NCBI GenBank assembly: GCA_007132725.1
Contig: SLOD01000011.1
Location: 117-64,116, forward strand
DNA from: Candidatus Sumerlaeota bacterium
GTDB taxonomy: Bacteria > UBP6 > UBA1177
Direction: 5' to 3'
DNA: 64,000 bases
Shown here: positions 1 to 57,088 of the stretch, piece by piece
Position numbering within the stretch: position 1 is the first letter of the stretch
How the letters are laid out: each line of letters starts with the position of its first letter
Notes under the pieces: generated by a model
The model's database searches: none
Seen by the model: only the letters and a program-made list of their open reading frames with translations
What the model was told of the DNA's origin: nothing
Program-made: the position numbers and the translations under genes

Positions 1-315
<315 letters not shown>

Positions 316-365: not shown

Positions 366-1325
366 TCATTCTTTTTCTATCATTGAAAGAGATATCTGAT
401 GGTACCACAGCCATAGAAGACCTAAAATAGTAACGGGAATGATCTGGGACATATGTAAAACAACAGCAACCGCCATTCTCTTTTCATAAAGTATCGCAAA
501 AAATCTTAAAGAATAAACTATAGCTGCCTGAAATACTGCCAGTCCACCCGGTGTAGGTGCCGCAAGCATCCCGAGATTTGCAGCACAAAGCATAAAAATA
601 TAGCCGACAAGAGGAATTTCAACACCAAAAGCTCTGGAAATAAGTATATATACAACAAGCTCCATAGACCAGACAAAAAAACTGAGAAAAGTTACGGCAA
701 AAAACGCTTTAGGAGATTTAATGGAAGATGCCCCGGAAATAAATTTTTCAGCGACATCAACAAAAAAAGAAAGAACTTTAAACTTTTTTCTTATAGAAAA
801 CAGTATCTTTTCCGGTATTTTTGAAAATGTACCAAACATTATAAAAAGAAAAAGGAGCATGAAAAAAGAAAAGGCAAACAAAGCGAGAGTTTTAACATTA
901 GGAGGAAGAGGGTAAATAAAAAGAATAACAAAAAGAAGAAAAGCTATTGTAAGCCCGTCAAACACCCTCTCCACAAATATTGAAGCTAACACTGATGTTT
1001 TACTCACTTTTCTTCTATTTCCAGTCACCCATGCCCTGGCAAACTCACCTATCCTTACCGGCATAATATTGTTTACAGCATATCCGCTGATAGTGAGCAT
1101 CGTCAGTTCTCCGACCTTGAAATCTCCAATATGAGAAGTGAGAAGTTTCCATCTCAACCCCCTTACAGCAAAAGAAAGCAGATAAAAGAATACTCCACTC
1201 AGTATAAGCAGAGATCTTCCTTCAAAGAGGTATTCCCTAAAAAGAACCATATCAAGATCTTTAAGAAGAAAATAGAAAAGAAAAGCTGTGAGAAAGAAAC
1301 TTAAAATTGTCTTATACTTTTTCAT
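366..1325 (-). CDS. UPF0104 / lysylphosphatidylglycerol-synthase-TM-like (flippase-like) integral membrane protein.
   Basis: Polytopic membrane protein of 319 aa with the family-typical C-terminal PTPGGLAVFQ (PGG[LIV]G[VA]xE-like) motif. Confidence 0.55.
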   Translation of the reverse strand: MKKYKTILSFFLTAFLFYFLLKDLDMVLFREYLFEGRSLLILSGVFFYLLSFAVRGLRWKLLTSHIGDFKVGELTMLTISGYAVNNIMPVRIGEFARAWVTGNRRKVSKTSVLASIFVERVFDGLTIAFLLFVILFIYPLPPNVKTLALFAFSFFMLLFLFIMFGTFSKIPEKILFSIRKKFKVLSFFVDVAEKFISGASSIKSPKAFFAVTFLSFFVWSMELVVYILISRAFGVEIPLVGYIFMLCAANLGMLAAPTPGGLAVFQAAIVYSLRFFAILYEKRMAVAVVLHMSQIIPVTILGLLWLWYHQISLSMIEKE

Positions 1326-8568: not shown

Positions 8569-10593
8569 TTATCCTTCTTCCTTAGGCTCTTCCTCTTTAG
8601 GTTCTTCTTTAGGTTCCTCTTTAGGTTCCTCTTTAGGTTCCTCTTTAGGTTCCTCTTTAGGTTCCTCTTTAGGTTCTTCTTTAGGTTCCTCTTTAGGTTC
8701 CTCTTTAGGTTCCTCTTTAGGTTCCTCTTTAGGTTCCTCTTCCTCGGGTTCTTTTTTGGGATCCTCCTCAGACTTTACTTGAGGCTCTTCTTCTTCAGAT
8801 TTTTTCTTTTTCTTTGCTTTTGGAGCAGCCTTGGCTTTTTTTTCAGGTTCCGTTTTTTCCACTTTATCTCCATCAGGAGATTCTTTGTCTACTTTTTCCG
8901 GTTGTTCTTCAGGCTGTTCTTCAGCTTCTTCTTTTTCCAGAACTTTGAAACTATCCCCTATAGAACCAAGTTTTTCGGGCACCTTTTCGACTTTTGCAGA
9001 TTCTTCAATATTTTCCTGCAACTCCTTGTCACTTACAGCTTTGATACTCAAAGATACTTTTCTGTCTGCATCGGAAATGGATTTAATTATAACTTCCATT
9101 GTATCTCCGACATTGTATTCCTTATTTTCATCTTCGAATTCCGACCTATGTACAAGACCTTCAATAGTATCAAAAACTTTTACGAAAACTCCAAAATCAG
9201 CTATTTTTACAACTTCAACCTCGATCTTTTCTCCCGCTTCGTGCTGTTCTTTGAATATTTTCCAAGGATCTTCTGTGAGTTGCTTTACTCCAAGAGAGAA
9301 CCTTTGTTTTTCGGAATCTATGTTAAGCACCATAGCTTCAACTTCATCCCCTTTCTTATAGTATTCCGAGGGATGTTTAAGCTTTCTGTCCCATGTTATG
9401 TCCGAAGTTCTGACTAAACCATCGATTCCGTCTTCTACACCTACAAAAATACCAAAATCTGTAATATTCCTTATGGTTCCTTTGACAATGGTGTTTACAG
9501 GGTATTTCTCTTTCAACAGATCCCACGGATTAGGTTCGATCTGTTTCATACCCAAAGATATCCGTCTGTTTTCAACATCAATTTCAAGTATTTTAACTTC
9601 GACTTCGTCCCCTATCGCCACCATTTTTCCAGGATGTTTTATTCTACGGGTCCAAGACATTTCAGAAATATGGATCAGACCTTCAATACCCTTTTCAAGC
9701 TCAACAAAAGCTCCGTAGTCTTCAAGAGAAACAACCTCACCTGTTACAACCGTTCCAACACCGTATTTTTCAGTAGCATACTTCCATGGATCTTCAGTTA
9801 TCTGCTTTATTCCAAGACTTACTCTTTCAGACTCTTTATCAAATTTGAGTATTTTAACATCTACTTCATCTCCGATCTTAAACATTTCTGACGGGTGATT
9901 TACCCTGCCCCAGGACATATCCGTGATGTGGAGTAAGCCGTCAATTCCACCCAAGTCAACAAAAACTCCGTAATAGGTTATATTTTTTACAAGCCCTTTG
10001 ACTATGGTTTCTTCAGCAAGCTTTTCAAGTGTGGAAGCTTTTAAAGATTCTCTTTCTTTTTCAAGAAAATCTCTTCTGCTTATCACAATGTTCCCTTTCT
10101 TTTTGTCACATTTGATAACCTTGAAATCAAAATTTCTCCCTATCAGCTCATCAACATTTTTAATAGGACGGAGAGCAACTTGTGAATTTGGGAGAAAAGC
10201 TTTCACCCCAATATCAACTGCCAATCCGCCATTTACTTTTGCAACAATAGTACCATTTACCAAAGAACCTTCATCATAAGCCTTTTCCACTGTCTCCCAG
10301 ATCTTAAGTTTTTCGGCTTTTTCTTTTGAAAGACAAATGTTCCCCCCTTCATCTTCCCATTTTTCAACGATGACCTCTACCACATCTCCAACTTTGAGAT
10401 TACTGATCTCTTCTGCTGAAAACTCTGAGGCGGAAATCACACCGTCACTCTTTAGACCTACATCCACAAGGATGAAGTCTTTTCTGACAACACGAACCTC
10501 TCCTTTACAAAGTTCTTCGCTTCCCATCTCTCTTTCACCGGGAAGAAATTCTTCAAGCATTTCTTCAAAACTTTTTTTTGTTTCATCCGTCAT
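8569..10593 (-). CDS. rpsA: 30S ribosomal protein S1 (six S1 domains) with a ~120-aa Lys/Glu/Pro-rich C-terminal extension ending in 12 x PKEE(P).
   Basis: Repeated S1-domain signature (G.V.G.V...GaFV.l..g.dGLlHiS.....r) six times. Confidence 0.85.
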   Translation of the reverse strand: MTDETKKSFEEMLEEFLPGEREMGSEELCKGEVRVVRKDFILVDVGLKSDGVISASEFSAEEISNLKVGDVVEVIVEKWEDEGGNICLSKEKAEKLKIWETVEKAYDEGSLVNGTIVAKVNGGLAVDIGVKAFLPNSQVALRPIKNVDELIGRNFDFKVIKCDKKKGNIVISRRDFLEKERESLKASTLEKLAEETIVKGLVKNITYYGVFVDLGGIDGLLHITDMSWGRVNHPSEMFKIGDEVDVKILKFDKESERVSLGIKQITEDPWKYATEKYGVGTVVTGEVVSLEDYGAFVELEKGIEGLIHISEMSWTRRIKHPGKMVAIGDEVEVKILEIDVENRRISLGMKQIEPNPWDLLKEKYPVNTIVKGTIRNITDFGIFVGVEDGIDGLVRTSDITWDRKLKHPSEYYKKGDEVEAMVLNIDSEKQRFSLGVKQLTEDPWKIFKEQHEAGEKIEVEVVKIADFGVFVKVFDTIEGLVHRSEFEDENKEYNVGDTMEVIIKSISDADRKVSLSIKAVSDKELQENIEESAKVEKVPEKLGSIGDSFKVLEKEEAEEQPEEQPEKVDKESPDGDKVEKTEPEKKAKAAPKAKKKKKSEEEEPQVKSEEDPKKEPEEEEPKEEPKEEPKEEPKEEPKEEPKEEPKEEPKEEPKEEPKEEPKEEPKEEEPKEEG
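8584..8750. repeat. Near-perfect 15-bp tandem repeat (ttcctctttaggttc x~11) at the 3' end of rpsA encoding the PKEE repeats. Not a CRISPR array (no spacers).
   Basis: Direct reading. Confidence 0.85.
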
Positions 10594-10729
10594 TTGTAAA
10601 AATACCTCCTGTTAATATATTCGCTGCTCAGAAACGGAACACTGAACAAACGTGAATGGGATTATAAATTCATAAAGTAAGTTGTCAATAAAAAAAATGT
10701 TGACTTAAAGTCTTTAATTGAGTTAGATA

Positions 10730-13700
10730 TTGGGGCTGATGAGAGCTTATGCTCTAAGAAAATTAACTGAATGTTTGGTTAAAATTATTAATATAACTGT
10801 ATTGGAGGCAATCTTGAAAAAGTTCTTCTTCCTCTCTTTAGTTCTCTTTTTATCAATCTTACCGGAATATCTATCGGCAGATAATGTTGCGGTGTTCCCT
10901 ATCGGAGCCAGCCAAAGAAGCGAATGGAGTCTTGCAAAAGATGTTGACAGGATCATTGACAGAGATCTTCATAAAATAAGTGCTGCCAAAGCCTTGTCTT
11001 TTAGAGAAATCCTTTCTGCCGCTAACAGGAAACTTCTTGCAAGCTGCAGAGCTGATCTTAACTGTCAAAGGGAGATTTCCACAAAAGCAGGACGAAGAGA
11101 TATAGACTTTTTCCTTTTCTCAAGGCTCAGATTTGCTGAAAACAGAGATGTAGTTGTACAGACATATCTTTTTGATAGAAGATACAGCCGGCTTGAAACG
11201 GTTACACTTGAGATGGATTACAATATTTTTGCGGATGAAATAGCAGATAAACTTTTCCAAGCATGGAACAACATGCTGTCCAGACATGTTACCAAAGCAG
11301 CCCCTCCACCTCGCCAAAGGTTCGATGATGATTTTGATGATGATTTTGACAGGAGAGACAGGAGAAGAGAGAGAGAAGATTATGGAAGACCCGCCCCCAG
11401 AACATCGGAAGCTATAATTGCAGAAGGTTTCAGAGCTTATGCTGACGGCAATCTAAGACAAGCGAGATCCCTTTTCCAAAAAGCCGCTTCAAGAGATGTT
11501 GTTGCTCAAAGGCTTTTTAACGCTGTCGATGAGATCGGAAAATATTTAGCAAGAGCAAATGCATCCATAAAGGCGAAAAGATATGAAGAAGCTATTCCAA
11601 TTATAGCTAAAGCGGAAAGCCTTGATGAATCAATAAAAACCCTTGGTCAGAAATACGGAGTATTTTATCAGGAACCTGTCGAAAGAAAAACTTACCTTGA
11701 ACCTACACCAAGAGACATGAAGGTTGTAGAGTCTATACATAAAAGATATGCAGGAAAAACTGAAAAAGCAAGGAGAGACAGGGCTGCCGGAATATCGGAG
11801 ATAGACAAGTGGATAAACCAGAGGATCCGGGATAGAGAAGCAAAGATGAAGCAGTTTGTTGTTGATTCCGAAAACGCTGCTGCCCAGGAAAAGAAGGAAC
11901 TTGCTGAACTGAGAAAAGAAATAAAAGAGCTTCGCCACAAATGGGAACAGGAAGATGATGAAATAGAACAGAAAATCGTTGCTCTTGAAAGCAACCTGAC
12001 TTTGCTTGAACAAAGGGTTAAGGGTGTTGTAAAAGTATCAACAGAAAAAGAAGAAAAAGCAAGGAAGGCGGAGCTCGCAGCAGTAGATAAAAAATATAAG
12101 GAGCTTTTGAAAAAACTTCGTGAAGAAAGAAATGCTTTTTATGAAAAGCAAAAAGCGGAACTTGAAGAAGGTTCAAAAAATGTAGAAGCAAAAGTTGCGA
12201 AACTCCAGAAGCAAAAAAGTGAAAATGAGGAAGCTATAAGAAAGATAGATAAAAAGATAGAAGCTGCTACCAGAGAGTTTGAAGAATCAGAAAGAAAATA
12301 CTCAAGAGGAACTGAAGGGGTTAGGCTGAAACAGGAAGACGAAGACAGAAGATTCGCCGTTGAAGTTGAGAAGGAATATCAGGCTAAATTCGATGAATTA
12401 AACGAAAAATTAAGAGCTTATGATAAAAAAGATGCGGAGAGAAGAGAAGCCCTGAAGGTATTTGACAGAGAAATAGAAGACTTCCTTATGAAAAATGTGG
12501 AAATTATGTCTGCGTTTCAGGAAGATGTTGAAAAAGAAAGAACCGTTCTTGATAAAAAGTATAAAGGAAAGAAAGAAACCGCCGCTTCAGATGCTGAAAA
12601 AGAGTGGAACAAAAAACTTGAAGACTTTACTTCAGAAAAAAATGAGATAGAAGCCAAAATAGCAGAAGAAGAAACTCCGGCTTTAAAGAAACAGTTGGCA
12701 CAAATTGAAAAAAAGATATCAGCCCATGAAGAAAACAAAGACTCGTTTATCGCAGAAAAAGTTATGCAGGTGGAAATGGAACATGAGATGAAGTCTGCAG
12801 AACTTGATATGAAGCTTGTAAACAGGAACAACGAGCTTCAAAAAGAAAATAATGCTTTCAGAGATAAAAAACTGGCTGAAAAAAAGAAAGCCGAAGCCGA
12901 CTACAAAAATTTCCTCAAAAGAAAAGAGGATTTTAGAAAAAGCATAGAACGACAGGTAGAAATGGCACAGAAAGACAGAGACAATAAAATCGAAAAACGT
13001 AGAAAAGAAAGAGGTGCTCTTGCCACTACTTGGGAAAAAGAAGCAGAAAAAAGAAAACTTGCTTTTGAAAAGTCTATACAACCTGACAGAAATTTAAGGG
13101 AAAAACTTATTAAAGCAAATGAAAAGATCGACGATGATATTGTAAAAATCAATGATGCCTGGGAAAATCGGAGTCAAGATATAAGAATAGAACACCATAC
13201 CTCCTCAGAAAAATTTGAGGAAAATTGGAAAGAGCGATTCTCAAAAACAGAAGAAGAGTTTAAAGAAGCCAGAGAAGCTGTCGAAGACAAGTATGCTGAT
13301 AAACAACTGCAAGCCAGAGAAGCCCAGAAACGACAGAGAGTTGAATGGGAAGAAGCGATACAGGCTTTAAATGAGAAAAAAGCAAGGAATCAAAAAGAAA
13401 GACAAGCTATACTTGATCAAAAAAGGATGGAATGGGAAGAAAGACAGGCTGAAAGAAAAAGAGAAGAAGAGCAGAGAAAAATTGACAGAGAAAACTTTGC
13501 CGAAGAAATGAAAAGACTGAATACAGAAGATCGGGCTGAAGCAGCTATGAAGCGGAAAGATGTTGAAAGAAGATTCAAAGAAGCCACTGGCGATATATAT
13601 CAAGCTCAAATTGACGAAATCCGCAGCAAATTTCCTGACGATTTCAGATACACCAGAAGAAGAGAAGTTGTAGGAGTAAGAGCAAGCGAAAATATCCAGC

Positions 13701-13993
13701 TATTAAAAGCCAGCGCTCTTGCTCAAAGCGGACTTTTAAAATTACAGGACAGAGATATTCTCAATGCAAAAAGGCTTTTTGCCGAAACTCTGTTCCTTGA
13801 CAGTAACAACAAGATAGCACTGGATGGTATGAGATCCATTGAACTTACTGCGAAATCAATGTACTGGGAAGCTTTCGGAATGAGAGAAACAGACAGGGCC
13901 AAGGCAAGAGAAATATTTTCCTTGCTGGTACAAACACTGATGCCGTCCAGCGAATATTTTGTCAGAGCTAAAATTGCACTCGAAGACTTATAA
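10730..13993 (+). CDS. Large secreted or periplasmic coiled-coil protein of ~1060 aa. Probable true start is TTG 10814 (MKKFFFLSLVLFLSIL signal peptide) with GGAGG at 10804-10808. Architecture: ~130-aa N-domain, DDDFDDDFDRRDRRRERE linker, ~700 aa of E/K/R-rich heptad coil, C-terminal TPR-like helical domain.
   Basis: Signal peptide and extreme charged-coil composition read from the translation. No catalytic motifs. Its 3' end overlaps the dxr 3' end convergently by 6 nt. Confidence 0.55.
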   Translation: MGLMRAYALRKLTECLVKIINITVLEAILKKFFFLSLVLFLSILPEYLSADNVAVFPIGASQRSEWSLAKDVDRIIDRDLHKISAAKALSFREILSAANRKLLASCRADLNCQREISTKAGRRDIDFFLFSRLRFAENRDVVVQTYLFDRRYSRLETVTLEMDYNIFADEIADKLFQAWNNMLSRHVTKAAPPPRQRFDDDFDDDFDRRDRRREREDYGRPAPRTSEAIIAEGFRAYADGNLRQARSLFQKAASRDVVAQRLFNAVDEIGKYLARANASIKAKRYEEAIPIIAKAESLDESIKTLGQKYGVFYQEPVERKTYLEPTPRDMKVVESIHKRYAGKTEKARRDRAAGISEIDKWINQRIRDREAKMKQFVVDSENAAAQEKKELAELRKEIKELRHKWEQEDDEIEQKIVALESNLTLLEQRVKGVVKVSTEKEEKARKAELAAVDKKYKELLKKLREERNAFYEKQKAELEEGSKNVEAKVAKLQKQKSENEEAIRKIDKKIEAATREFEESERKYSRGTEGVRLKQEDEDRRFAVEVEKEYQAKFDELNEKLRAYDKKDAERREALKVFDREIEDFLMKNVEIMSAFQEDVEKERTVLDKKYKGKKETAASDAEKEWNKKLEDFTSEKNEIEAKIAEEETPALKKQLAQIEKKISAHEENKDSFIAEKVMQVEMEHEMKSAELDMKLVNRNNELQKENNAFRDKKLAEKKKAEADYKNFLKRKEDFRKSIERQVEMAQKDRDNKIEKRRKERGALATTWEKEAEKRKLAFEKSIQPDRNLREKLIKANEKIDDDIVKINDAWENRSQDIRIEHHTSSEKFEENWKERFSKTEEEFKEAREAVEDKYADKQLQAREAQKRQRVEWEEAIQALNEKKARNQKERQAILDQKRMEWEERQAERKREEEQRKIDRENFAEEMKRLNTEDRAEAAMKRKDVERRFKEATGDIYQAQIDEIRSKFPDDFRYTRRREVVGVRASENIQLLKASALAQSGLLKLQDRDILNAKRLFAETLFLDSNNKIALDGMRSIELTAKSMYWEAFGMRETDRAKAREIFSLLVQTLMPSSEYFVRAKIALEDL

Positions 13994-15996: not shown

Positions 15997-16833
15997 TCAA
16001 CTCCTTATCTGTTCCGTAGTTTTTCCAAATCGTCTTTCTCTGTTTGAATACTCTTTTATAGCATCTACAAAATTTTCCTTTTTAAAGTCAGGCCACAATA
16101 CATCTGTAAAATAAAGCTCAGAGTAGGCTATCTGCCACAACAGATAGTTACTTATCCTTATTTCACCTGAAGTCCTTAACAATAGATCAGGGTCAGGAAT
16201 ATCATGAGTGTAAAGGTGTTTTTTCATCACTTGGGAGTCAATATCTTCAACTTCCAGGTACCCCTTTTTCACTTGAAGAGCTATCTCTTTTACCGCTTTT
16301 AATATTTCATCCCTTGAACCATAACCCAGAGCAACGGTCAAAGTCATCTCATAACTTTGGCTTGAGGTTTCCTCAGATAAAGCAAGTGCTGCTTCTCTGA
16401 TCTTTTCAGGGACATTGCCCAAATCACCGATGAAATTAAGACGGATATTATTGTCAAGAAGCAAGTCCCGTCTCTTTTTGACACTTTGAGCAAGAAGAGA
16501 CATTAAACCATCCACTTCATCTCTGGGCCTTGACCAGTTCTCAGAAGAAAAAGCGTATAAAGTTAAATACCTTACCCCTATTTCTCTACTGAACCTAACT
16601 ATTTCATCTACCCTTTTTTCACCCTCAGCATGTCCTTTTAATCTGTTCCAAAATCTTTTTTTCGCCCATCTTCCATTCCCATCCATTATAACGGCTACAT
16701 GAGAAGGTATTTTATAGCCATTAAGTCCATATTTTTCTAGTCTTTCTTTCGTCATTTTACACCGAGATATTTGACTGGATTCACCCCTGTTTTCCTTCCA
16801 GAGCCTTATTAGCTTTTTCTGTGAGTTTCGCAA
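15997..16833 (-). CDS. uppS: Undecaprenyl-diphosphate synthase (isoprenyl transferase). Likely true start MTKERLEKYG at about 16755.
   Basis: HVAVIMDGNGRWAKKR and ...SxxNWxRP... motifs. Confidence 0.85.
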   Translation of the reverse strand: MRNSQKKLIRLWKENRGESSQISRCKMTKERLEKYGLNGYKIPSHVAVIMDGNGRWAKKRFWNRLKGHAEGEKRVDEIVRFSREIGVRYLTLYAFSSENWSRPRDEVDGLMSLLAQSVKKRRDLLLDNNIRLNFIGDLGNVPEKIREAALALSEETSSQSYEMTLTVALGYGSRDEILKAVKEIALQVKKGYLEVEDIDSQVMKKHLYTHDIPDPDLLLRTSGEIRISNYLLWQIAYSELYFTDVLWPDFKKENFVDAIKEYSNRERRFGKTTEQIRS

Positions 16834-17704
16834 TATAAGAATTGTTCTTTTCCATTGAAGCAGCCATTTTGAGCTGCGTTAAAGCAGATTTATAGTCCTT
16901 TTGATCCATTGCTTTACATGCCAGCCGGGCAAATCTTCTGGCTTGCGGGTTTTCAATAGTATCTTCCAGATTTTCCTCGTATGCCACTTTCATCCTGAAA
17001 TCGAATCTTTTAAGTTCAGGATTTTCAGAAAGCATTCTGTCATATATAGCTCTCCTGTTGGGGTGACTGAGGACAGAGTACGCTTCATTTGCTCTTTTCG
17101 TTATTTCATATGTCATATTCCGTATGTCAGAAGGAACATTCCTGAATTTATCAGGATGATATTTTCTTGCTAAAGAAACATACTTTTTTTTGATCTCTTC
17201 ACTTGCCGCCTTGGAAGATAGGTTGAAAAACTGATAATAATTCAGGTTATCCATCGAAGAAAAAAAGTTTTTGATCGTCTCGATGAAATCCTTGGTCATT
17301 ATGTCCGGCACCTTAACATTTCTCTCTATCTTCTCTATCACATTTTTTACAGCAGTGAGCAAAGTCTCACTGTTGACCGGGAGTTTAAAAAATGCTGCTG
17401 CTCCGTATTTGTCAGCGATCCCTTGGGAAACTTCCGGACCTTCAGGCACACCAAGCAAAATAAAGCTTTTAGCTTTACTGATAACAGGTAAAGCTTTTAA
17501 CCAGACACCTTCTTTTAAAAGAGACGAAACTATGACCGTAGAATATTCAGACAAGGGAAGTTTTGAAAGAGATTTTATTTCAGATACAGTATCCACCTCG
17601 CTTTCACTGATCTTATTGACTAAAAACAGTTTAAGGGATTGTAGATACTTTTCATCTTTCATCAGTATAAGGATTTTCGGTTTCATATCACTACTCCAAA
17701 CCAA
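16781..17704 (-). CDS. J-domain protein with an N-terminal degenerate (pseudo-)receiver domain and a C-terminal TPR-like helical region.
   Basis: J domain: [16 protein letters not shown]-terminus: MKPKILIL...VIVSSLL (no phospho-acceptor Asp)...FFKLP (REC-like K-P). Confidence 0.6.
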
Positions 17705-19232
17705 GAATGTTTAATGAAATTTTCTGGATTTTACCTGTTTCCTGATCGACTGCGCTTACATTCAGCACACCGTTAGTGTCAATCTCAAATTTAACTTCTA
17801 TTTTCAGCTCACCTCTCAGGGCTTTTCTTAAATTGGAAAGAGTCAGCTCCCCCATCAGGTGCGATTCGCTTTTTTTCTTTCCATCCCCCTGATATATCTC
17901 GATTCTAACAGCGTCCTGATTGTCTCTGGCATTTGTAAAAATGTTGGTCCTTTCAATGGGTAGAGGAGAATTTTTATCAACAAGTATTTCAATATAATCT
18001 CCTACTGACCCGACCCCTAAAGAAAGAGGTATGACATCAAGTAAAACAGGCGAAGCTTCACTGTAATCACTGACAAGAGTTTGGCCTAAAATACTGGCAC
18101 CCATTGAAATAACAAGAACAGATTCTATTCCGTAAAAAGGCGACTGTTGAAAAAACCGGGCTACTTTCTGCTGGACATAAGGAATTTTAGTTGATCCGCC
18201 GACAAGTATCACAGCATCAATATCTTCGGGTTTAAGGTGAGCATTTTCCATTGCTTTGTCACAGATATCAAATGTCTGTGATATAATAGGATCTATTATT
18301 TCATGATAAAGCCTTCTGTCAATAACTCTTTCATAGTCTTTTCTTGAACCGTCAGCCATAGGAACGATCCCTTTTATAAGCACTTTTATTTTTTCTTCTG
18401 TACTTAAAGATATTTTGATCCTTTCTGCTTCAGACAGAAGAATAGTTTGCATTTCGTTGTTCACAGGCAGTTCTGTATCAAAAGTTGTCTCTATATCAAC
18501 GACCATGAATTGAACAAGAGCTGCATCTATATCGTCTCCTCCAAGGAAACTGTCTCCTGCGGTTGAAAGCACCTCAAAAAAATTGTCCTTGACTTCAAGT
18601 ATGGTTACATCAAAAGTGCCTCCTCCAAAATCAAAAACAACGATTTTTTCGTTTAGATTGTTCCCGAAACCATACGCCAGTGCTGCTGCTGTGGGTTCGT
18701 TTATTATTCTTAAAACATTAAGTCCTGCAAGTTTTCCGGCATCCTGGGTTGCTCTTCTTTGAGCTTCATTATAATTTGCTGGAACAGTTATAACAGCATC
18801 GGTAACTTCAAAGCCAAGGTAATCCTGAGCCGCTTTTTTAGCTTTTTTTAAAACTAACGATGAAATAACTTGAGGTGTTATCCTTTTACCGAATATTTCT
18901 ATTTCAATTGAATCATTTTTACCGCCAACAACCTTGTAAGGAAACTTACTTGCAAACTTTCTTGTATCGGAGTGAGAATACTTTCTCCCTATTATCCTTT
19001 TTATACTGTAAATAGTGTTTATCGGATTTAAATGTCTTCGTTCTTTAGCTTTTTTCCCTACTATCACATTTTTTCCTTCATTTAAAAACGAAACAACAGA
19101 GGGCATTATTTTGTCGTCTTCCTCTCCTTTTATAGGAATGATCTGAGGCATTCCATCTCTGACGATAGAAACAGTAGTGGTAGAAGTACCGAGGTCTATG
19201 CCAAGTACAAAATTTGCAAATTTGTTAACCAT
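17691..19232 (-). CDS. Hsp70-family ATPase lacking the C-terminal alpha-helical lid (nucleotide-binding domain + beta-sandwich substrate-binding domain only, 513 aa).
   Basis: [12 protein letters not shown] (phosphate 1), [12 protein letters not shown] (phosphate 2), [12 protein letters not shown] (adenosine). Ends at a beta-SBD-like ...[13 protein letters not shown]... with no lid. Confidence 0.75.
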
Positions 19233-24586: not shown

Positions 24587-27500
24587 TCAACTATTATCAA
24601 CATCTTTTATTTTTGAAACCTCTTTTTTTAATTTAGAAGTTTCGGTATTAAGTTTTTTGGAAACCTGATAAATGCTGTCAACCATCCCGGTATTTTCCTG
24701 AGTTATCTTTCTGATATCACTTAAAGAAATATCAACCGAGCGCACCTCGTCAGTATGGTCTTCGATTATTTTTCTTACATCGTTCATTTGTCTTGAAATG
24801 GTCTTGAACTGACCTATTATTTCACTGATAAATTTTACCGTATTGTTAACGGATGACCTTCCTGAAACAACTTTTTCAGAAGTATCATCTATCAGTTTTT
24901 TTATTGTCACGACAGCATTGGAAGTTTGTAAAGAAAGTTCTCTGACAGAATCTGCCACAACAGCAAAGCCTTTTCCGGCATCACCTGCTCTGGCTGCTTC
25001 AATAGCGGCATTAAGAGAAAGGAGGTTTGTCTGGAAAGCAATATCATCTACAACTTCAACTATGTTTGAAACCTCTAAAGCACTGTATTCTATCCTTTCT
25101 ATTGATTCCACAGCTTCGCTGAGGACGGAAGTGGAGAGATCGGCTTTTTTTGAAATATCAGAAACCGTTTCATGCATGACCTGTACTTCATCTTTTGTTT
25201 CCTCAAGCTTGCCTGTTATATCAGACAATGTAGAAGATGCTGTATCTATCATTGCATAAGTTGCATTAAATTTTTCAGCGGTCATACCCGTATTCGATGA
25301 TATTACTTTAGATATATCTCCGAGAGTATCAGAAAGTTTTTGAACATGCAGTATTATGTCTTTAAGATTTTTCGTTCTGGTCGCAATTGTGCTGCTCATA
25401 GTAGTTTCTCTATCCTTTATCTCAGCACTTTTCTTTCTGATATAGGACACTGCCATGTATCCGGCAGCAAGAAGAATAATAAGCCTAAACCACCATGTCT
25501 GCCAGAAAAAAGGTTTAATGACGATAATGAGAGATACCCCCTCATTATTCCACACATTATCATTGTTGGCTGCAAGCACCTTGAATTCATACTCTCCGGG
25601 ACCTAAATTAGTATAGAAAGCATTTCTCTGTGTGCCGACATTTCTCCATCTGTCATCAAAACCCTTCAATTTATATTTAAATGTCACCTGATCAGGAAAA
25701 AGTAAGCTCAGCCCGGTATATTCAAAAGAAACCATCGTTGTACCCGGTTCGAAAGAAAACCTCTTTCTGCCATGGACAGGATAAGTGACATCATCTATAG
25801 TTACAGATGTAATATGAACAGGAGGCACCACAGAGTTGTGTCTCATATCTCCCGGATCAGCAACAACCAAGCCTTCTGCAGTAGGCACCCATATTCTGCC
25901 ATCTCTGCTCCTCCAGATGTTAGGCTGTGTTCCTCCGTTACACTCAGGAGTTAAAAGACCATCTTTAAACCCGAAAGTTCTGGGTTCGACAGTAGAAGTC
26001 CTTCCACTAAGAAAAGAGTCAAGGTCACTTTTCTCTATAAATTTTATCCCCTTGTTGGATGTCAACCATAAGTTACCGTTGAAATCCTCAGTAACATCGA
26101 AAATAGTTCTTGTATCCAATCCCCTGCTTCTGTCAATTGTTACTGCCCCCAGCTCTTTGTCATAAATAGTGAGTCCATTTTCCGAGGCAAAAAACAGTCT
26201 TCCGTCAAAAGCGGAGTAAATAGACAAGGTCCCAATATTCTCAAGATTTGTAAATTCAGTGATCAGTTTTTCACCTTGAACTCTAAACGGTCCTAACTTC
26301 GTTGCAATCCATATTGAACCCGATCTGTCTTCTGTAATACCCGACAGACCTATATTATCAGTCCCGGGCAAGGTAATAATTTTGTCTCCTTTCATATAAG
26401 CAAGGCCACCTGTAAGCATCCCTATCCAAAGAGTACCTCTTGAATCTTTGAACAGGGCAGAAATGTCTTTGCCCGGCAAACCATCAAACTCATCATATAA
26501 TCTGGCTACTCCGTCTTTCAGCCTTAGGAGTCCTTTTCCATAGACTCCGGCCCACAAAACTCTGTCATTATCTTCAAACAAAGAGAGCACAGTATCATAA
26601 GATTCCAACTTTCCCCTGAAAGTGTATCTTGTCAACTTGTTATCCCTCAACCGGTACAATGCACCCGCCCAGGTTCCAAGCCACATTGAACCATCATGAC
26701 TCTCAAAAACAGGAAAAACTACAGGCTGATCTAAGCCGCTATGTCTTCCATAAGTTATAAACTTCCCCTCCTTGAACCGGTAAAGACCGTAACCGCTGGT
26801 ACCGACCCAGACACTCCCTTCTCTATCCTCAAGGATACTGAAAACATAATTTTTACCTATAGAGCTGACATAGTTATCATCATCGGAACATATTCTGAAG
26901 AGTCCATCGTTGTATGTCCCCACAAAAACACATTCATGGTTATCAACATACAGCCCGCTTATCATTCTGTTAGCAAAAAACTCAGGTCTATATGAGCGGG
27001 ATCTACCAGAGACAGTATCAAACAAATATACTCCGGCACCTCTTGTTCCAAGCAGAAAACTTCTCTCGTCTATAGCCACAGCTTTGGTTATTTCGCGTGG
27101 AAATTTAAGTTCTTTTGTGGCTCTTGTTCCCTGGAGCCTTGAAAAGTAACTTTCTGTTCCAACCCATATTGTCCCGTCACCGCCTTTAATAACTTCTCCT
27201 ACGTTATCTGATGGAAGCCCGGACGATTTATTGATTACTGCTTCAACGCCGTTTTCTCCTAACACAACAAGACCATTTCTCCTTGTTCCAAAATAAAAAG
27301 TTCCATTGTTATCTTCAGCACCGGAAGTGATATTGTTGCTTGGAAGACCTTTTTGAGTATCAAAAATTTCATAGGTTTCATCTATATAGTTAAATTTTAT
27401 AATTCCTCCGCCATCTGTCCCTATCCACAGATAAGGTTTGGTCGAATCTTCCAGAATAAGTTCTGTTTTGTGGTTATCAACAGGAAAAAAGGAGTCGTCG

Positions 27501-27724
27501 TAAACATCCATTTTTATTCCGTCAAATTTAACAAAACCCTCTTCCGTTCCAAGCCACATAAAACCATCTCTTGCCTGAACCATTGTTCTCACAGAGTTTT
27601 GGGGAAGTCCGGACAAAATATCGTAGCTGTCGATCATAAATTGATCAAGGGAAATATCTCTGGATAAACCATCAAGCACCATCATAGAAATAAAAACCAA
27701 AAAATAAACAACTGTTTTTTTCAT
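24587..27724 (-). CDS. Methyl-accepting chemotaxis protein with a large periplasmic two-component-regulator-propeller + Y_Y_Y sensor module, one TM, and a cytoplasmic MCP signalling domain.
   Basis: Signal peptide and repeated Reg_prop-like blades (GLPxNxVxxxxxDxxGxxWxGT). Y_Y_Y-like [18 protein letters not shown], then [20 protein letters not shown]-terminal highly conserved MCP core [31 protein letters not shown]. Confidence 0.7.
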
Positions 27725-53574: not shown

Positions 53575-55026
53575 TTATCTCTCAAAATATTTTTCAACTT
53601 CAAGTTTATCAGAGAAAAACTTTTTCCCGTGTTTCGTAATTTGATAGTTTTCCGCACCTTTTCCTGCTATTATGACCACATCATCTCTTCTTTTAAGGTC
53701 TATCGCTTTTTTTATCGCTTCAGATCTGTCATGAATTACATGGATATCACAAAGATGTTGTGAACAACCGCTTTTTATATCTGTCACGATCGCTGAGGGG
53801 TCTTCATTTCTCGGGTTGTCATCAGTTATGAACACTATATCTGCATATTTGCAGACAACTCTCCCCATTTCCGGCCTTTTTCCCTTATCTCTATTGCCTC
53901 CCGCACCGAAAACCACAATTATCCGACCGCTTCCTGCAACTTCTTTTATTGTTGAGAGTATGTTTTCCAAAGCATCCGGAGTATGTGCGTAATCAATATA
54001 TACCGATTCGTTCTTTATCTCTTCCATCCTTCCCGGAACGGATATTTTTTTACAAATATTGGCAACCGAAAGTTCGAACCCGGTAAATCTTTCACAAGCC
54101 ATGATCGAACATGCTGCGTTGTAAACATTAAAACGACCTGCCATAGGGATTAGTTTTTTCAGGCTCTTATCTTTATATTTGAAAATGACCACAGAGCCAT
54201 TCAATGTCTGTTCTTTTACATCTACATACAGGTCGACACCCTTCTTTTTTAAAGAAACCGCCACCTTGTTTGCTTTGTCAGACAATTCCGAGTAGAGCCG
54301 CTCCCCATATATATCATCAACATTTATAACTGCGACACCCTCTTCCTTCAGGTGTTCTTCAAATAATTTTTTTTTTGCACGATAGTAGGATTCCATATCG
54401 AAGTGGTAGTCCATATGATCTCTTGAAAGATTGGTAAAAACCGCCACATCGAATTTTGTTCCCGCTACTCTCTCCTGTTCAAGACCGTGACTGCTTATTT
54501 CAGATACAACAACTTCAAACTTATCCAAAACCATTTTGTTTAGAAGTTCATACCACTTCCAAATAAAGGGAGTAGTATTTCTGGCCTCAAGAACTTTATC
54601 AGAAAATTTGTACCCCAGTGTACCTATAACACCACATTTCAGCCTGTTTTCAAGGCCACTTTCTATCATGTGTGTTATCGTGGTTTTACCATTAGTTCCA
54701 GTTACACCTATCATTTTTAATTTGTTTTGGGGGTTGTCATAAAAAATTGCTGAAACTTCTTTTAAAACAGAGAGAGCAGATTCGACCCTTATATAATTTT
54801 CACGATCAACACTGTTTTCTCCTACAGCAAGAAATGCTCCGTTTTTAAAAGCTTGGTCTACAAAGTCATGTCCATCGGCATTTTCACCTCTGATACAGAA
54901 AAACACACTTCCCAAGAGAGCTTCTCTGGAGTCTGCGGTGATATTTGTCAAAACAACATCTTTGAGCACAACTTTTTCTGAAATAATATATTTTGAAATA
55001 AGCTTAATGAATTTATTCAACTTCAT
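53575..55026 (-). CDS. murE: UDP-MurNAc-L-Ala-D-Glu--2,6-diaminopimelate ligase.
   Basis: GTNGKTT and the meso-DAP-specific DNPR motif (DDNPRNEDP). Confidence 0.85.
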   Translation of the reverse strand: MKLNKFIKLISKYIISEKVVLKDVVLTNITADSREALLGSVFFCIRGENADGHDFVDQAFKNGAFLAVGENSVDRENYIRVESALSVLKEVSAIFYDNPQNKLKMIGVTGTNGKTTITHMIESGLENRLKCGVIGTLGYKFSDKVLEARNTTPFIWKWYELLNKMVLDKFEVVVSEISSHGLEQERVAGTKFDVAVFTNLSRDHMDYHFDMESYYRAKKKLFEEHLKEEGVAVINVDDIYGERLYSELSDKANKVAVSLKKKGVDLYVDVKEQTLNGSVVIFKYKDKSLKKLIPMAGRFNVYNAACSIMACERFTGFELSVANICKKISVPGRMEEIKNESVYIDYAHTPDALENILSTIKEVAGSGRIIVVFGAGGNRDKGKRPEMGRVVCKYADIVFITDDNPRNEDPSAIVTDIKSGCSQHLCDIHVIHDRSEAIKKAIDLKRRDDVVIIAGKGAENYQITKHGKKFFSDKLEVEKYFER

Positions 55027-57088
55027 CAGCTACCTCTTCTGTCTGAACAGTCAGAACCGTTCCAAAAGGAACTGTTTCCCCGTCTTCAGGATACTGGCTT
55101 ACTATTCTCCCTGAGGGACTTCCTGAAACAACAAGATTCAGCCCCATTCTATTTGCAGTCTGAAGGGCAGAAGCAGCATTCATCTTTCTAAGATCTGGAA
55201 CTTTTATAAAGCTGAAAGCCGTTATTTTTTCATCTCTATCTTCACTTACTATACCTGAAGTAATATCTTTTTCAACCGATTCCATTGTCACAGCTTTTTT
55301 TTCCATCTCGTGGGAACTGCTATCAACCATTATACCTTGCAAAGGCAACACTCTGGCCGCTATATTTCTAAAAACAGGAGCAGCCACTGTACCTCCATAT
55401 TCTTTACCTTCCGGCTCATCTATCACCACCATCATAACCATAGAAGGATCATTACTTGGAACAGCACCGATAAAAGAGCATACGACCTTTGTAAAAGAGT
55501 ATCTGTTAGTCTCAAAATCAAATTTCTGAGAGGTTCCGGTCTTTCCCCCTACTCTAATTCCCGGGATTTGTGCTCTTCTTGCTGTACCCTCATCTACTAC
55601 ACCCTCAAGCATTCTAACCATGTTCCTGTCAGAATTATAGTTAAAAGCAAGTCTTTTCGGTTCAGGAACAGTCTGAAAAATTATTTTCCCAGTCGAAGGG
55701 TCCTCTATCCTGTCAACGATAGTAGGCTGCCACAAAACTCCTCCATTGTATATGGAAGCATACGCCCTTACCATCTGTACCATATTGGTAGCTAATCCTT
55801 GACCGAAAGAAATATTTGCCTTGTCTATCGGGTACCACTTACTATAGTGTCTTAACTGGGGAAAAGATTCTCCAGGAAGATTCAGCCCTGTTCTTTGTCC
55901 AAACCCAAAAAGATTTAAATAGTTATACAACTGCTTATTTTCGAGTCTATCTACAAGTTTTACCGTACCTATATTACTGGAGTATATTATTGTGTCCCTC
56001 AAAGTTAACCACTGATGCGGGCGAGTATCTCTGATCCACCTCCTTCCATACATAAATCTTCCATTTTCACCAGAGATCTTTTCTCCCGGTTTTACGAGAT
56101 TTTCATTCATTACCGCCATAATAGAAAAAACTTTGAAAGTAGATCCCGGCTCAAAAAGGTTTGCAACAACAAAATTCCTTCTTTCTCTCGGAGTATATTT
56201 GTAATATTTTTCGGGATCATAGGTTGGATAGTTTGCCATTGCAAGAATTTTTCCTGAAGCAGGATCCATTATCACTACTCCACCCCACTTTGCATTGACT
56301 TCATTCATCATTGACGACAGCTCTTCTTCTGCAATAAACTGAATTCTACTGTCAATTGTGAGATACAGATTTGCTCCGGGGGAAGAAGCCATTTCTTTCT
56401 CTATCTCTATTGAAACCTCTCCGGTTCCCGGGACAGTCAGCCTTCTGATACTTCTTTCTTTTCCTGTTAAATAGCGGTTATAGCTCATCTCGATCCCTTC
56501 CAGACCGACATCTTCATTTCTCTGGACGAAACCAATGACATTGGCAAGCATCTTACCCTGAGGATAAACTCTTTTATAACCATCATGAAAAATTATAAAT
56601 CTGAAGTCTGAAATCATTCTTGTAAGCAATCTTATTTCTTCGGGATTTACATTTTCTGTTTTATTGAGCTCTCTTAGTCTTTCCCGGAGTTTAATATTTT
56701 CTTCCTTCAATGCTCTTACTGTTTTAAATTCAGCATTACGCTGGAGATAATAAAAGTGTCCTTTTCTTTCTAAGATCTGAAGGATCCTTTGGGGACTGGT
56801 GTCCAGAACCTTAGCCAGAATGACAGCCATCCCGTTTTTTTCTCTAATCCCTGCAGAGTCAACTGCAATATCAACCTTTGGCTCACTCAAAGCTAAAAAC
56901 TCACCGTTCCTATCAAAAATAGAGCCTCTTTTACTTTTAATGGTTTTTATAACTTCATCGTATTTTGAATATTGGTGCAACACTTCATGCCTTACGATCT
57001 GGATCTGGTATGTCTTTAATAAAATTAGAATAAAAGAGAGGAAAATTACAAAGGAGATAAACAGAAAAAGTTTGTTTTCTCTGGACAT
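55013..57088 (-). CDS. ftsI: Class B penicillin-binding protein FtsI/PBP with a C-terminal PASTA domain.
   Basis: N-terminal TM, transpeptidase STFK, SSN, KTGT motifs; C-terminal PASTA-like FIKVPDL...LVVSGSPSGRIVSQ. Confidence 0.85.
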   Translation of the reverse strand: MSRENKLFLFISFVIFLSFILILLKTYQIQIVRHEVLHQYSKYDEVIKTIKSKRGSIFDRNGEFLALSEPKVDIAVDSAGIREKNGMAVILAKVLDTSPQRILQILERKGHFYYLQRNAEFKTVRALKEENIKLRERLRELNKTENVNPEEIRLLTRMISDFRFIIFHDGYKRVYPQGKMLANVIGFVQRNEDVGLEGIEMSYNRYLTGKERSIRRLTVPGTGEVSIEIEKEMASSPGANLYLTIDSRIQFIAEEELSSMMNEVNAKWGGVVIMDPASGKILAMANYPTYDPEKYYKYTPRERRNFVVANLFEPGSTFKVFSIMAVMNENLVKPGEKISGENGRFMYGRRWIRDTRPHQWLTLRDTIIYSSNIGTVKLVDRLENKQLYNYLNLFGFGQRTGLNLPGESFPQLRHYSKWYPIDKANISFGQGLATNMVQMVRAYASIYNGGVLWQPTIVDRIEDPSTGKIIFQTVPEPKRLAFNYNSDRNMVRMLEGVVDEGTARRAQIPGIRVGGKTGTSQKFDFETNRYSFTKVVCSFIGAVPSNDPSMVMMVVIDEPEGKEYGGTVAAPVFRNIAARVLPLQGIMVDSSSHEMEKKAVTMESVEKDITSGIVSEDRDEKITAFSFIKVPDLRKMNAASALQTANRMGLNLVVSGSPSGRIVSQYPEDGETVPFGTVLTVQTEEVADEVE

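Follow-up and report, generated by a model that had tools for sequence, protein, structure and literature searches.

What does a long, charged and apparently exported protein do in a bacterium that has not been cultured, when no known family claims it? The question is raised by a gene located between rpsA and dxr in a 64,000-nucleotide stretch of Candidatus Sumerlaeota bacterium DNA (contig SLOD01000011.1 of assembly GCA_007132725.1, positions 117 to 64,116 of the forward strand), hereafter the window, to whose first letter all nucleotide coordinates refer unless another locus is named. Our computational analysis indicates that the gene product, here called the rod protein, is an exported, non-enzymatic rod that most likely serves as a hitherto undescribed kind of scaffold in the cell envelope, and we give this overall reading a probability of roughly 0.5. 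The first-pass annotation of this DNA, made from the sequence alone, had described a coil of ~700 residues that would span ~100 nm if continuous. The region is indeed long, charged and helical; it folds back on itself, comprises 640 residues and measures ~47 nm.

The predicted helical region covers residues 299-939 (640 residues), is helical throughout and is ~50% charged; over residues 331-940, the charged fraction is 50%, with E 19%, K 16% and R 9%. Only two prolines, at positions 622 and 757, occur in the rod. Hydrophobic periodicity of 3.5-3.7 residues is clear in 337-616 and weak in 617-950. A full-length AlphaFold2 (AF2) model was built from a 12-sequence alignment and has a mean predicted local distance difference test score (pLDDT) of 73.6 (Table 1). 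In this model, the strands 286-294 and 944-952 form a mirror pair with its midpoint at residue 619, and the breaks 399-414/828-841 and 497-504/734-739 have their midpoints at 620-621 and 618-619, respectively. The helix is interrupted at 619-621, and the residues E620-T621-P622 are invariant in 12 aligned close orthologues. Since every irregular feature is mirrored about residue ~620, the chain runs out and then folds back.

Length variation in the family points to the same turn. Among 21 diverse relatives, 23-69% identical to the query, insertions of 37, 42 and 113 residues are found at residue 617, the apex. The other rod indels are small, namely +3 residues at position 410 within the 401-412 loop, -4 residues at 644 in one relative and +7 residues at 599 in one divergent paralog, and the remaining variation lies in the linker, in a few short N-domain deletions and in the called starts of the open reading frames. 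The 37-residue apex insertions hold a new helix-breaking motif, NK(P)GD/NKADD, at their center. Covariation was evaluated as mutual information with average product correction over 47 non-redundant sequences, taking the top 100 long-range pairs; 12 of these 100 lie within 8 of i+j=1240, as against 2% of all pairs (binomial P 7.6e-7). Arm-to-arm covarying pairs include 413/834, 493/747, 471/769, 316/929 and 602/638. Moreover, when the charge profiles of the arms, averaged over the family, are compared at 281 offsets, their anticorrelation is strongest at offset 1241, and the invariant EDED at 508-511 is located opposite the basic run K728-R733 (KRRKER) of the returning arm. Whole-length Foldseek matches of the model comprise MukB (E 1.5e-6; 7nyx_A, probability 0.90), condensin, Smc5/6, JetC and Rad50, and the protein accordingly shows the long intramolecular antiparallel coiled-coil arm by which the SMC superfamily is recognized.

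The hairpin is thus established as far as computation allows, and we regard the architecture as a whole as highly probable. Four independent lines support a two-helix antiparallel coiled coil, formed by the 640-residue stretch that separates the two base halves and turning at E620-T621-P622. At ~320 residues per arm and ~0.148 nm per residue, the rod measures ~47 nm, not ~100 nm. It would carry two conserved elbows, at 401-412/828-841 and 497-504/734-739, giving the topology of an SMC arm that has neither ATPase head nor hinge. A single-alpha-helix (ER/K) reading of the weakly amphipathic segment 785-940 was rejected as the main model, because covariation and indels tie this arm to its partner arm. 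An apolipoprotein-like reading was dropped, as proline-punctuated 11/22-mers are absent and the prolines of the rod are confined to 622 and 757.

The two arms emanate from a common base. The profile of residues 940-1059 matches consensus-tetratricopeptide repeat (TPR) designs with an E value of 1.4e-5, and helix-turn-helix repeats with the fold and the sequence motif of the TPR family are found. The covarying pairs 268/965, 275/958 and 262/958 join this segment with residues upstream of the coil. According to the model, residues 198-296 and 944-1059 jointly build the base, a divergent TPR domain out of which the coil extends as an excursion. The two TPR-like halves and a strand pair are predicted to hold the base together, an arrangement that covariation supports. 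The linear layout proposed earlier, N-domain, coil and TPR-like C-domain, is therefore not supported; its TPR-like C-domain is real, but residues 198-296 supply the other half of the bundle.

The N-domain adopts an alpha/beta fold, which corresponds to the N-terminal domain of TolB. In fold comparison, it scores 9.8 and 9.7 with TolB, 9.7 with HpaA, 9.5 with CT253, 9.3 with a Vibrio-type flagellar LPHT-ring protein, 9.0 with PelC and 8.2 with CsgG, followed by PqiC and LpoB (both 7.6) and LptE (6.6). The closest of these relatives are periplasmic components of diderm envelopes, and the TolB-N-type fold commonly serves for docking or ring formation in periplasmic and outer-membrane-associated machines. 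Pfam TolB_N does not match the protein even at E<=1, and the rest of the chain is helical, with no six-bladed beta-propeller. C78 and C84 are the only invariant residues across 17 diverse N-domains including paralogs, and they are kept in the long paralog described below. This invariance fits a structural disulfide and an oxidizing extracytoplasmic location; after cleavage between A22 and D23, the N-domain would probably be stapled by the C78-C84 bond. The acidic hinge noted in the first-pass annotation, DDDFDDDFD-RRDRRRERE, is present at residues ~171-188 and is predicted to be disordered (pLDDT <50 across 165-195), and it overlaps a tandem repeat of 12 bp x2.2 at 11324-11349. The TolB-N-like knob would thus hang from the base by a charged, disordered tether of ~33 residues.

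The N-terminus reads MKK, then FFFLSLVLFLSIL, then PEYLSA and, after the cleavage site, DN. The n-region is positive, the h-region has 13 residues and the cleavage site is of the form L-x-A, with L at -3 and A at -1. By manual inspection, these residues obey the rules for Sec export and signal peptidase I (SPase I), a small residue at -1 and a permitted one at -3. The region is the sole hydrophobic window of the protein (the only Kyte-Doolittle window above 1.6), and the n-h-c organization is kept in all homologues, in agreement with the signal peptide proposed earlier. No hydrophobic segment follows the signal peptide, so no membrane anchor is predicted, and the protein sequence contains no lipobox Cys, LPXTG, Walker A or CxxC motif. 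Taken together, the rod protein appears to be exported by a Sec-type route as a non-enzymatic structural protein, and an extracytoplasmic location is quite probable. The earlier view that a signal peptide excludes an SMC-like cytoplasmic role is upheld with respect to export, but the topology of the fold does match that of an SMC/MukB/Rad50 arm.

Side observations at other loci concern the type of envelope. Convergent neighbors of the orthologue at L018 (13547-14992) and L017 (13692-15182) encode proteins of ~480-495 residues with an N-terminal coiled coil; one of them has a sub-threshold match to the DcaP outer-membrane porin (E 0.0018), and the other (495 residues) ends in ...VKLNF, resembling an outer-membrane beta-signal. 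These neighbors give a weak hint that the lineage may be diderm. In the window itself, an FtsI-type transpeptidase of the division/cell-wall cluster, with a C-terminal PASTA domain, is encoded at 55013-57088 (minus strand) and also bears on the envelope type.

Conservation is concentrated in the rod. Mean pairwise identity is 0.32-0.48 in rod segments, compared with 0.27 in the N-domain and 0.20 in the linker, and the residue is charged or polar at 56 of the 81 rod positions that are conserved in >=85% of sequences. The conserved polar positions peak beside the two breaks, at 371-411 and 501-540. Particularly, the signature KxEDEDRKF..EKEYQxKFDxLNxKL (residues 503-533) is intact in the long paralog as well. 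That polar surface is conserved just where the rod has its conserved interruptions suggests that these are defined elbows or binding sites and that the rod is no featureless strut.

Searches for characterized relatives returned nothing. With the full protein, 0 families were matched at E<=1 in Pfam and NCBIfam, phmmer against the PDB found nothing, and a profile of residues 23-345 gave only noise against the PDB. A word-indexed search of 5.8 billion proteins yielded 11 homologues, all unnamed and 47-68% identical, of which the 10 complete ones span 1052-1078 residues. An exhaustive search with the 23-345 profile against 1.84 billion representative proteins gave just 23 hits at E<=1e-3, hence no bridge to a characterized family. 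The earlier description of the product as exported, fibrous, free of enzymatic motifs and uncharacterized agrees with the empty Pfam, NCBIfam and PDB searches, and the strong match to a characterized family that would have spoken against it was sought there and not found.

In GTDB species-representative genomes, the family occupies 57 loci in 31 metagenome-assembled genome (MAG) assemblies. An explicit UBP6 label is carried by 3 of the 31; the remaining assemblies are labelled 'bacterium', 'uncultured Spirochaetales' or 'Ca. Sumerlaeota', and all have the family in common and many the gene order. The family is seen only in a little-known uncultured lineage that includes the candidate phylum UBP6. 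All that is known of UBP6 (proposed name 'Ca. Asafiota') comes from MAGs of rumen, anaerobic digesters, hypersaline sediments and similar habitats (PMC11382960; PMC7382037). The literature on UBP6 consists of MAG surveys, in which we found nothing on its envelope or on the rod protein. Two further observations concern the census. The MAG UBA1196 holds two different rpsA-linked copies of ~1055 residues (L010 and L026), which suggests that this bin mixes two related genomes. In addition, a third, more divergent subfamily of ~1058-1066 residues (L011 2466-5642, minus strand; P0022-P0025; P0029) is 23% identical to the query over residues 4-657, so that some genomes have at least three paralogs.

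A second member of the family, ~1711-1755 residues long, is found in 28 of the 31 assemblies, and both length classes occur together in 25. In the ~1715-residue paralog, the first ~660 residues align to query 1-664 and the last ~440 to query 620-1059, with ~620 extra K/A/E-rich residues between them that contain very few prolines and are presumably helical. Judged from these alignments, the long paralog is the same protein with its hairpin lengthened at the tip, and its arms would reach ~625 residues or ~93 nm. The paralog gene belongs to a conserved string found whole or in part at most of the 29 paralog loci (L029-L057; for example L055 6131-15991). The string encodes a membrane-anchored 301-residue protein, a GT-C (PMT_2-type) glycosyltransferase, a membrane-anchored M23 peptidase, the paralog, a secreted 285-residue protein and a membrane-anchored coiled-coil protein of 215 residues. 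The M23 peptidase is nearest to the DD-endopeptidases MepM, ShyA and Pgp3, and the 301-, 285- and 215-residue proteins have no Pfam or NCBIfam match. From their sequences, all proteins of the string are apparently envelope proteins.

Taken together, these features are best read as those of a scaffold outside the cytoplasm, or of a tether that sets distances there, in the periplasm or wall zone, a role to which we assign about even odds. Protein partners would dock on the knob and on the TPR base; further partners, or other copies of the rod, may be bound by the polar patches conserved near the elbows and along the apex-proximal arm. The likely process would be cell-wall or envelope remodelling, by way of the paralog operon with its MepM/ShyA-like M23 DD-endopeptidase and GT-C protein; a link to peptidoglycan remodelling in particular is tentative and clearly less likely than not. 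Several points weigh against this picture. The lineage is uncultured, and all family members are known from sequence and computation alone. The window gene has no conserved functional neighbors, so that the peptidoglycan link comes from the paralog operon only. Moreover, a rod of 47 nm, or 93 nm in the paralog, exceeds the typical width of the periplasm, and a simple perpendicular spacer does not fit; a rod longer than a conventional periplasm should be tilted, run along the membranes, or bend at its elbows in the manner of SMC/MukB arms. With a predicted template modelling score (pTM) of 0.32 and an alignment of only 12 sequences, the model is compatible with a straight as well as an elbow-folded global shape. 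Hydrophobic residues make up only 16-23% of the returning arm, and the hairpin may therefore need partners for its stability. Finally, the only hints that the lineage may have an outer membrane are the periplasm-typical fold relatives of the N-domain and the sub-threshold DcaP-porin-like neighbor in one relative.

Together with the double-length paralog, the rod protein might form a periplasmic skeleton or ruler, with rods of two quantized lengths (~47 and ~93 nm) lying in the envelope plane or elbow-folded and positioning peptidoglycan-remodelling enzymes. We consider this extension of the scaffold reading unlikely at present. If true, such a skeleton would determine the shape of the cell or the spacing of its envelope in an entire uncultured lineage, and it would represent an extracytoplasmic, ATP-independent use of SMC architecture. 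An equally unlikely relative of this idea is self-assembly, in which rods of two fixed lengths, joined laterally or end to end, would polymerize into a lattice or filament in the periplasm or on the surface, cytoskeleton-like or as a sheath layer. This layer would govern the shape of the cell or the geometry of its envelope, and the rod would not be a tether linking discrete partners. The polar residues highly conserved along the rod, which are unusual for a spacer, would be accounted for by such contacts, as would the strictly invariant rod length within each class and the co-occurrence of the two classes in 25/31 assemblies, and the M23 neighbor of the paralog resembles the helical-shape peptidases Pgp3, ShyA and MepM. 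Yet the hydrophobic content of the rod suffices for one seam only. The protein might instead be a dedicated regulator of a cell-wall hydrolase, comparable with EnvC, the hairpin that couples FtsEX to amidases, or with ActH, the TPR activator of LytH, with a conformational switch of hairpin and base turning on a peptidase. This possibility is slightly more doubtful again: the window gene has no hydrolase neighbor, the protein contains no LytM or amidase domain, its TPR match is generic, and the EnvC hairpin is 5-10 times shorter than the rods.

If the cell were monoderm, or the protein secreted past an outer membrane, it could serve as a surface fibril or adhesin similar to enterococcal PrgA, which Foldseek lists among the matches (6z9l_A, E 2.3e-3); the presence of a signal peptide with no retention signal would suit this role. 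However, the distal tip is a 3-residue turn that bears no functional domain, neither of the wall-anchor motifs LPXTG and SLH is found, the nearest fold relatives of the N-domain are periplasmic and belong to diderm envelopes, and the protein occurs in single copy and shows strong conservation where adhesins evolve fast, all of which makes a surface fibril improbable. Still poorer is the standing of the arrangement first proposed, in which a continuous, probably parallel-dimeric coil of ~700 residues and ~100 nm would be a spacer in the periplasm, part of a sheath or an anchor of the S-layer. The heptad-like periodicity in part of this long, charged, helical region agrees with it; the mirrored breaks, the length variation almost wholly at the apex, the antidiagonal covariation and the Foldseek matches to SMC arms all indicate a chain that folds back, and Pfam detects no SLH or other anchor domain. 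Scarcely credible, in turn, is a cytoplasmic SMC-like or nucleoid-associated coiled coil whose N-terminal hydrophobic stretch would not be a signal peptide. The whole-length Foldseek similarity to MukB, SMC and Rad50 would favor it, but all homologues keep an n-h-c signal peptide, the two cysteines never vary, the N-domain has a fold common to periplasmic proteins, and Walker A, ABC head, hinge and zinc hook are all missing.

Table 1 Features of the rod gene and its product, with the elements of the AF2 model.
Feature	Residues	Window position	Strand	Basis or remark
Shine-Dalgarno sequence GGAGG		10804..10808	+	5 nt before TTG start; direct reading of sequence
Coding sequence, 1059 residues plus stop		10814..13993	+	ORF list; homologue lengths and starts
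Signal peptide, SPase I type, non-lipoprotein (predicted)	1-22	10814..10879	+	Kyte-Doolittle; no lipobox; conserved in homologues
N-domain, alpha/beta fold of TolB-N / PelC / CsgG / LpoB / LptE type	23-160	10880..11293	+	
AF2 alpha/beta domain	24-156			
C78-x5-C84, sole cysteines of the protein	78-84	11045..11065	+	Presumed disulfide; only two invariant columns in 17 diverse N-domains
Disordered acidic/basic linker with DDDFDDDFD-RRDRRRERE	165-197	11306..11404	+	pLDDT <50; no conserved columns; indel hot spot
AF2 disorder	165-195			
N-terminal half of TPR-like base: four helices and strand 286-294	198-298	11405..11707	+	
AF2 four short helices	198-280			pLDDT >90
AF2 strand	286-294			
AF2 very long helices	299-401, 412-618, 622-734, 741-840, 842-939			
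Outgoing arm	299-618	11708..12667	+	Helical in AF2; nearly indel-free in 21 relatives; densest family-conserved polar residues
Elbow 1, outgoing side (KGVVKVSTEKEE loop)	401-412	12014..12049	+	Low-pLDDT break mirrored by 828-841; flanked by conservation peak 371-411
Elbow 2, outgoing side, with signature motif 503-533	497-504	12302..12412	+	AF2 break; strongest conservation peak; window position includes the motif
Apex turn	619-623	12668..12682	+	AF2 helix break; site of nearly all rod length variation
Returning arm	624-939	12683..13630	+	AF2; antidiagonal covariation i+j~1240; charge complementarity at offset 1241
Returning-arm break, counterpart of elbow 2	734-739	13013-13030	+	
Returning-arm break, counterpart of elbow 1	828-841	13295-13336	+	
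C-terminal half of TPR base: strand 944-952 and five helices	940-1059	13631..13990	+	
AF2 strand	944-952			
AF2 five short helices	956-1058			

The gene lies in a single unbroken frame of 1087 codons from the first TTG (10730..13993, plus strand, in the list of open reading frames (ORFs)). A frameshift that would split it into two genes was looked for, and the frame is uninterrupted; the coordinates and general description of the ORF given earlier were correct. TTG 10814 is the best start, as previously proposed together with its GGAGG. Because of the spacing of this GGAGG (10804-10808, read from the sequence) and the start that most full-length homologues use at the equivalent M/L-K-K position, the coding sequence is taken as 10814-13993; a longer version starting at TTG 10730 is probably not the translated form.

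The rod gene is divergent from rpsA (8569-10593, minus strand), and on its other side dxr-cdsA-uppS are convergent. It meets dxr tail to tail, with a 6-bp stop-to-stop overlap at 13988-13993 and no terminator-like hairpin between the two genes. The first-pass annotation had rightly noted the divergence from rpsA; the TTGACT-type promoter it assigned to the gene does not stand, since no acceptable -10 element accompanies the TTGACT at 10700. The best plus-strand candidate, at 10682-10711, matches 9/12 positions, and 9/12 matches in the spacer are not more common than in shuffled sequence. The only perfect sigma-70 consensus in the spacer, TTGACA-16-TATAAT (12/12) at 10688..10661, is on the minus strand and serves rpsA. 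This promoter (10661-10688) overlaps the weak plus-strand candidates, and the divergent rpsA and rod gene may accordingly share or compete for the spacer. Of the relatives, the MAG SLGQ01 is closest to the window and has the same gene order, with protein identities of 60-90%. Adjacency to rpsA is seen in about half of the relatives and is not universal, and the downstream neighbors vary (dxr, OsmC and others); the context of the window gene is therefore uninformative on function. Among the relatives compared, it has no operon signal or conserved functional neighbors, and no paralog of the rod gene is located elsewhere in the 64-kb window.

Other features of the window are recorded here in their own right. 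At the end of rpsA, a 12-bp x 12.7 tandem repeat (8590-8741, minus strand) encodes a charged (PKEE)n tail that terminates ribosomal protein S1. The rpsA product has 674 residues here and 558-648 in related loci, and hence the length of the tail varies between relatives. A truncated Hsp70 (512 residues, without the C-terminal lid region) and a 306-residue DnaJ-domain protein are encoded at 16781-19232 (minus strand), inserted between frr and uppS in the string pyrH-frr-uppS-cdsA-dxr, an arrangement kept at the related loci L014 and L015. A methyl-accepting chemotaxis protein of 1045 residues with a Reg_prop/Y_Y_Y beta-propeller sensor domain (24587-27724, minus strand) implies that the organism is motile and chemotactic. 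A 789-residue protein with a Peptidase_C25 (gingipain-like) domain is encoded at 60730-63099 (minus strand).

Compared with known systems, the rod protein most resembles the arms of SMC, MukB and Rad50, in which both chain ends form one globular end and a long antiparallel intramolecular coil has conserved elbows; its arm, with ~320 residues and ~47 nm, is also similar in length to that of SMC. In contrast to SMC, MukB, Rad50 and JetC, it has a TPR base in place of the ABC ATPase head (no Pfam or NCBIfam match at E<=1 and no Walker A). Its apex is a 3-residue ETP turn with no CxxC, whereas SMC and Rad50 have a hinge or a zinc hook, and it differs from SMC, MukB and Rad50 in being exported and in lacking detectable sequence homology with them. 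The N-domain has its fold relatives in the N-terminal domain of TolB, PelC, CsgG, LpoB, PqiC, LptE, FlgT-type flagellar ring proteins and HpaA. Unlike TolB, the rod protein has no beta-propeller and possesses its own invariant CxxxxxC pair, and it is not a lipoprotein.

Coiled coils and TPR domains are combined in CpoB (YbgF) of the Tol-Pal system, a periplasmic protein of ~260 residues that coordinates the envelope and peptidoglycan machines and whose short coiled coil is a parallel trimer. The rod protein shares this combination, whereas its hairpin topology and TolB-N-like knob are absent from CpoB; no NCBIfam or Pfam match places it in the CpoB/YbgF family, and its neighbors are rpsA and dxr, not tol-pal. 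Intramolecular antiparallel coiled coils working in the periplasm are exemplified by EnvC and the alpha-hairpins of AcrA, MacA, HlyD and EmrA, which are roughly 5-20 nm long and attached to LytM, lipoyl or beta-barrel domains. The rod differs from them in its length (47 nm, or 93 nm in the paralog) and in having none of these domains, with no Peptidase_M23 match in the protein and M23 present only as a separate gene beside the paralog. As a long fibrous coiled coil outside the cytoplasmic membrane, the rod protein is comparable to PrgA, Omp-alpha of Thermotoga and OmpM, and it shares an antiparallel stalk with enterococcal PrgA, which is among its Foldseek matches. In PrgA, the distal tip bears a functional domain and LPXTG provides the anchor, while Omp-alpha and OmpM are parallel oligomers anchored by SLH domains together with a membrane segment or barrel. 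The rod protein, in contrast, has no tip domain, LPXTG, SLH or membrane segment, and the SLH-anchored spacers Omp-alpha, OmpM and SlpA are likewise set apart from it by the lack of a Pfam SLH match and of a hydrophobic segment after the signal peptide.

Periplasmic alpha-hairpins and extracytoplasmic stalks are thus kinds already known. As far as we could find, the combination of domains, the length of the rod and the two quantized length classes have not been described before. The family could serve as a lineage marker, and the rod as a rigid, length-defined module for protein engineering; the gene product consists of soluble domains only and is easily synthesized, and can hence be tested without culturing the organism. 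Long fold-back coils with elbows are known mainly from the cytoplasmic, ATP-driven machines SMC, MukB and Rad50. Here such a coil is predicted in an extracytoplasmic protein that has a TPR base and a TolB-N-like knob instead of the ATPase head and that comes in two fixed length classes in most sampled genomes of the lineage, which points to an unrecognized way of organizing the bacterial envelope.

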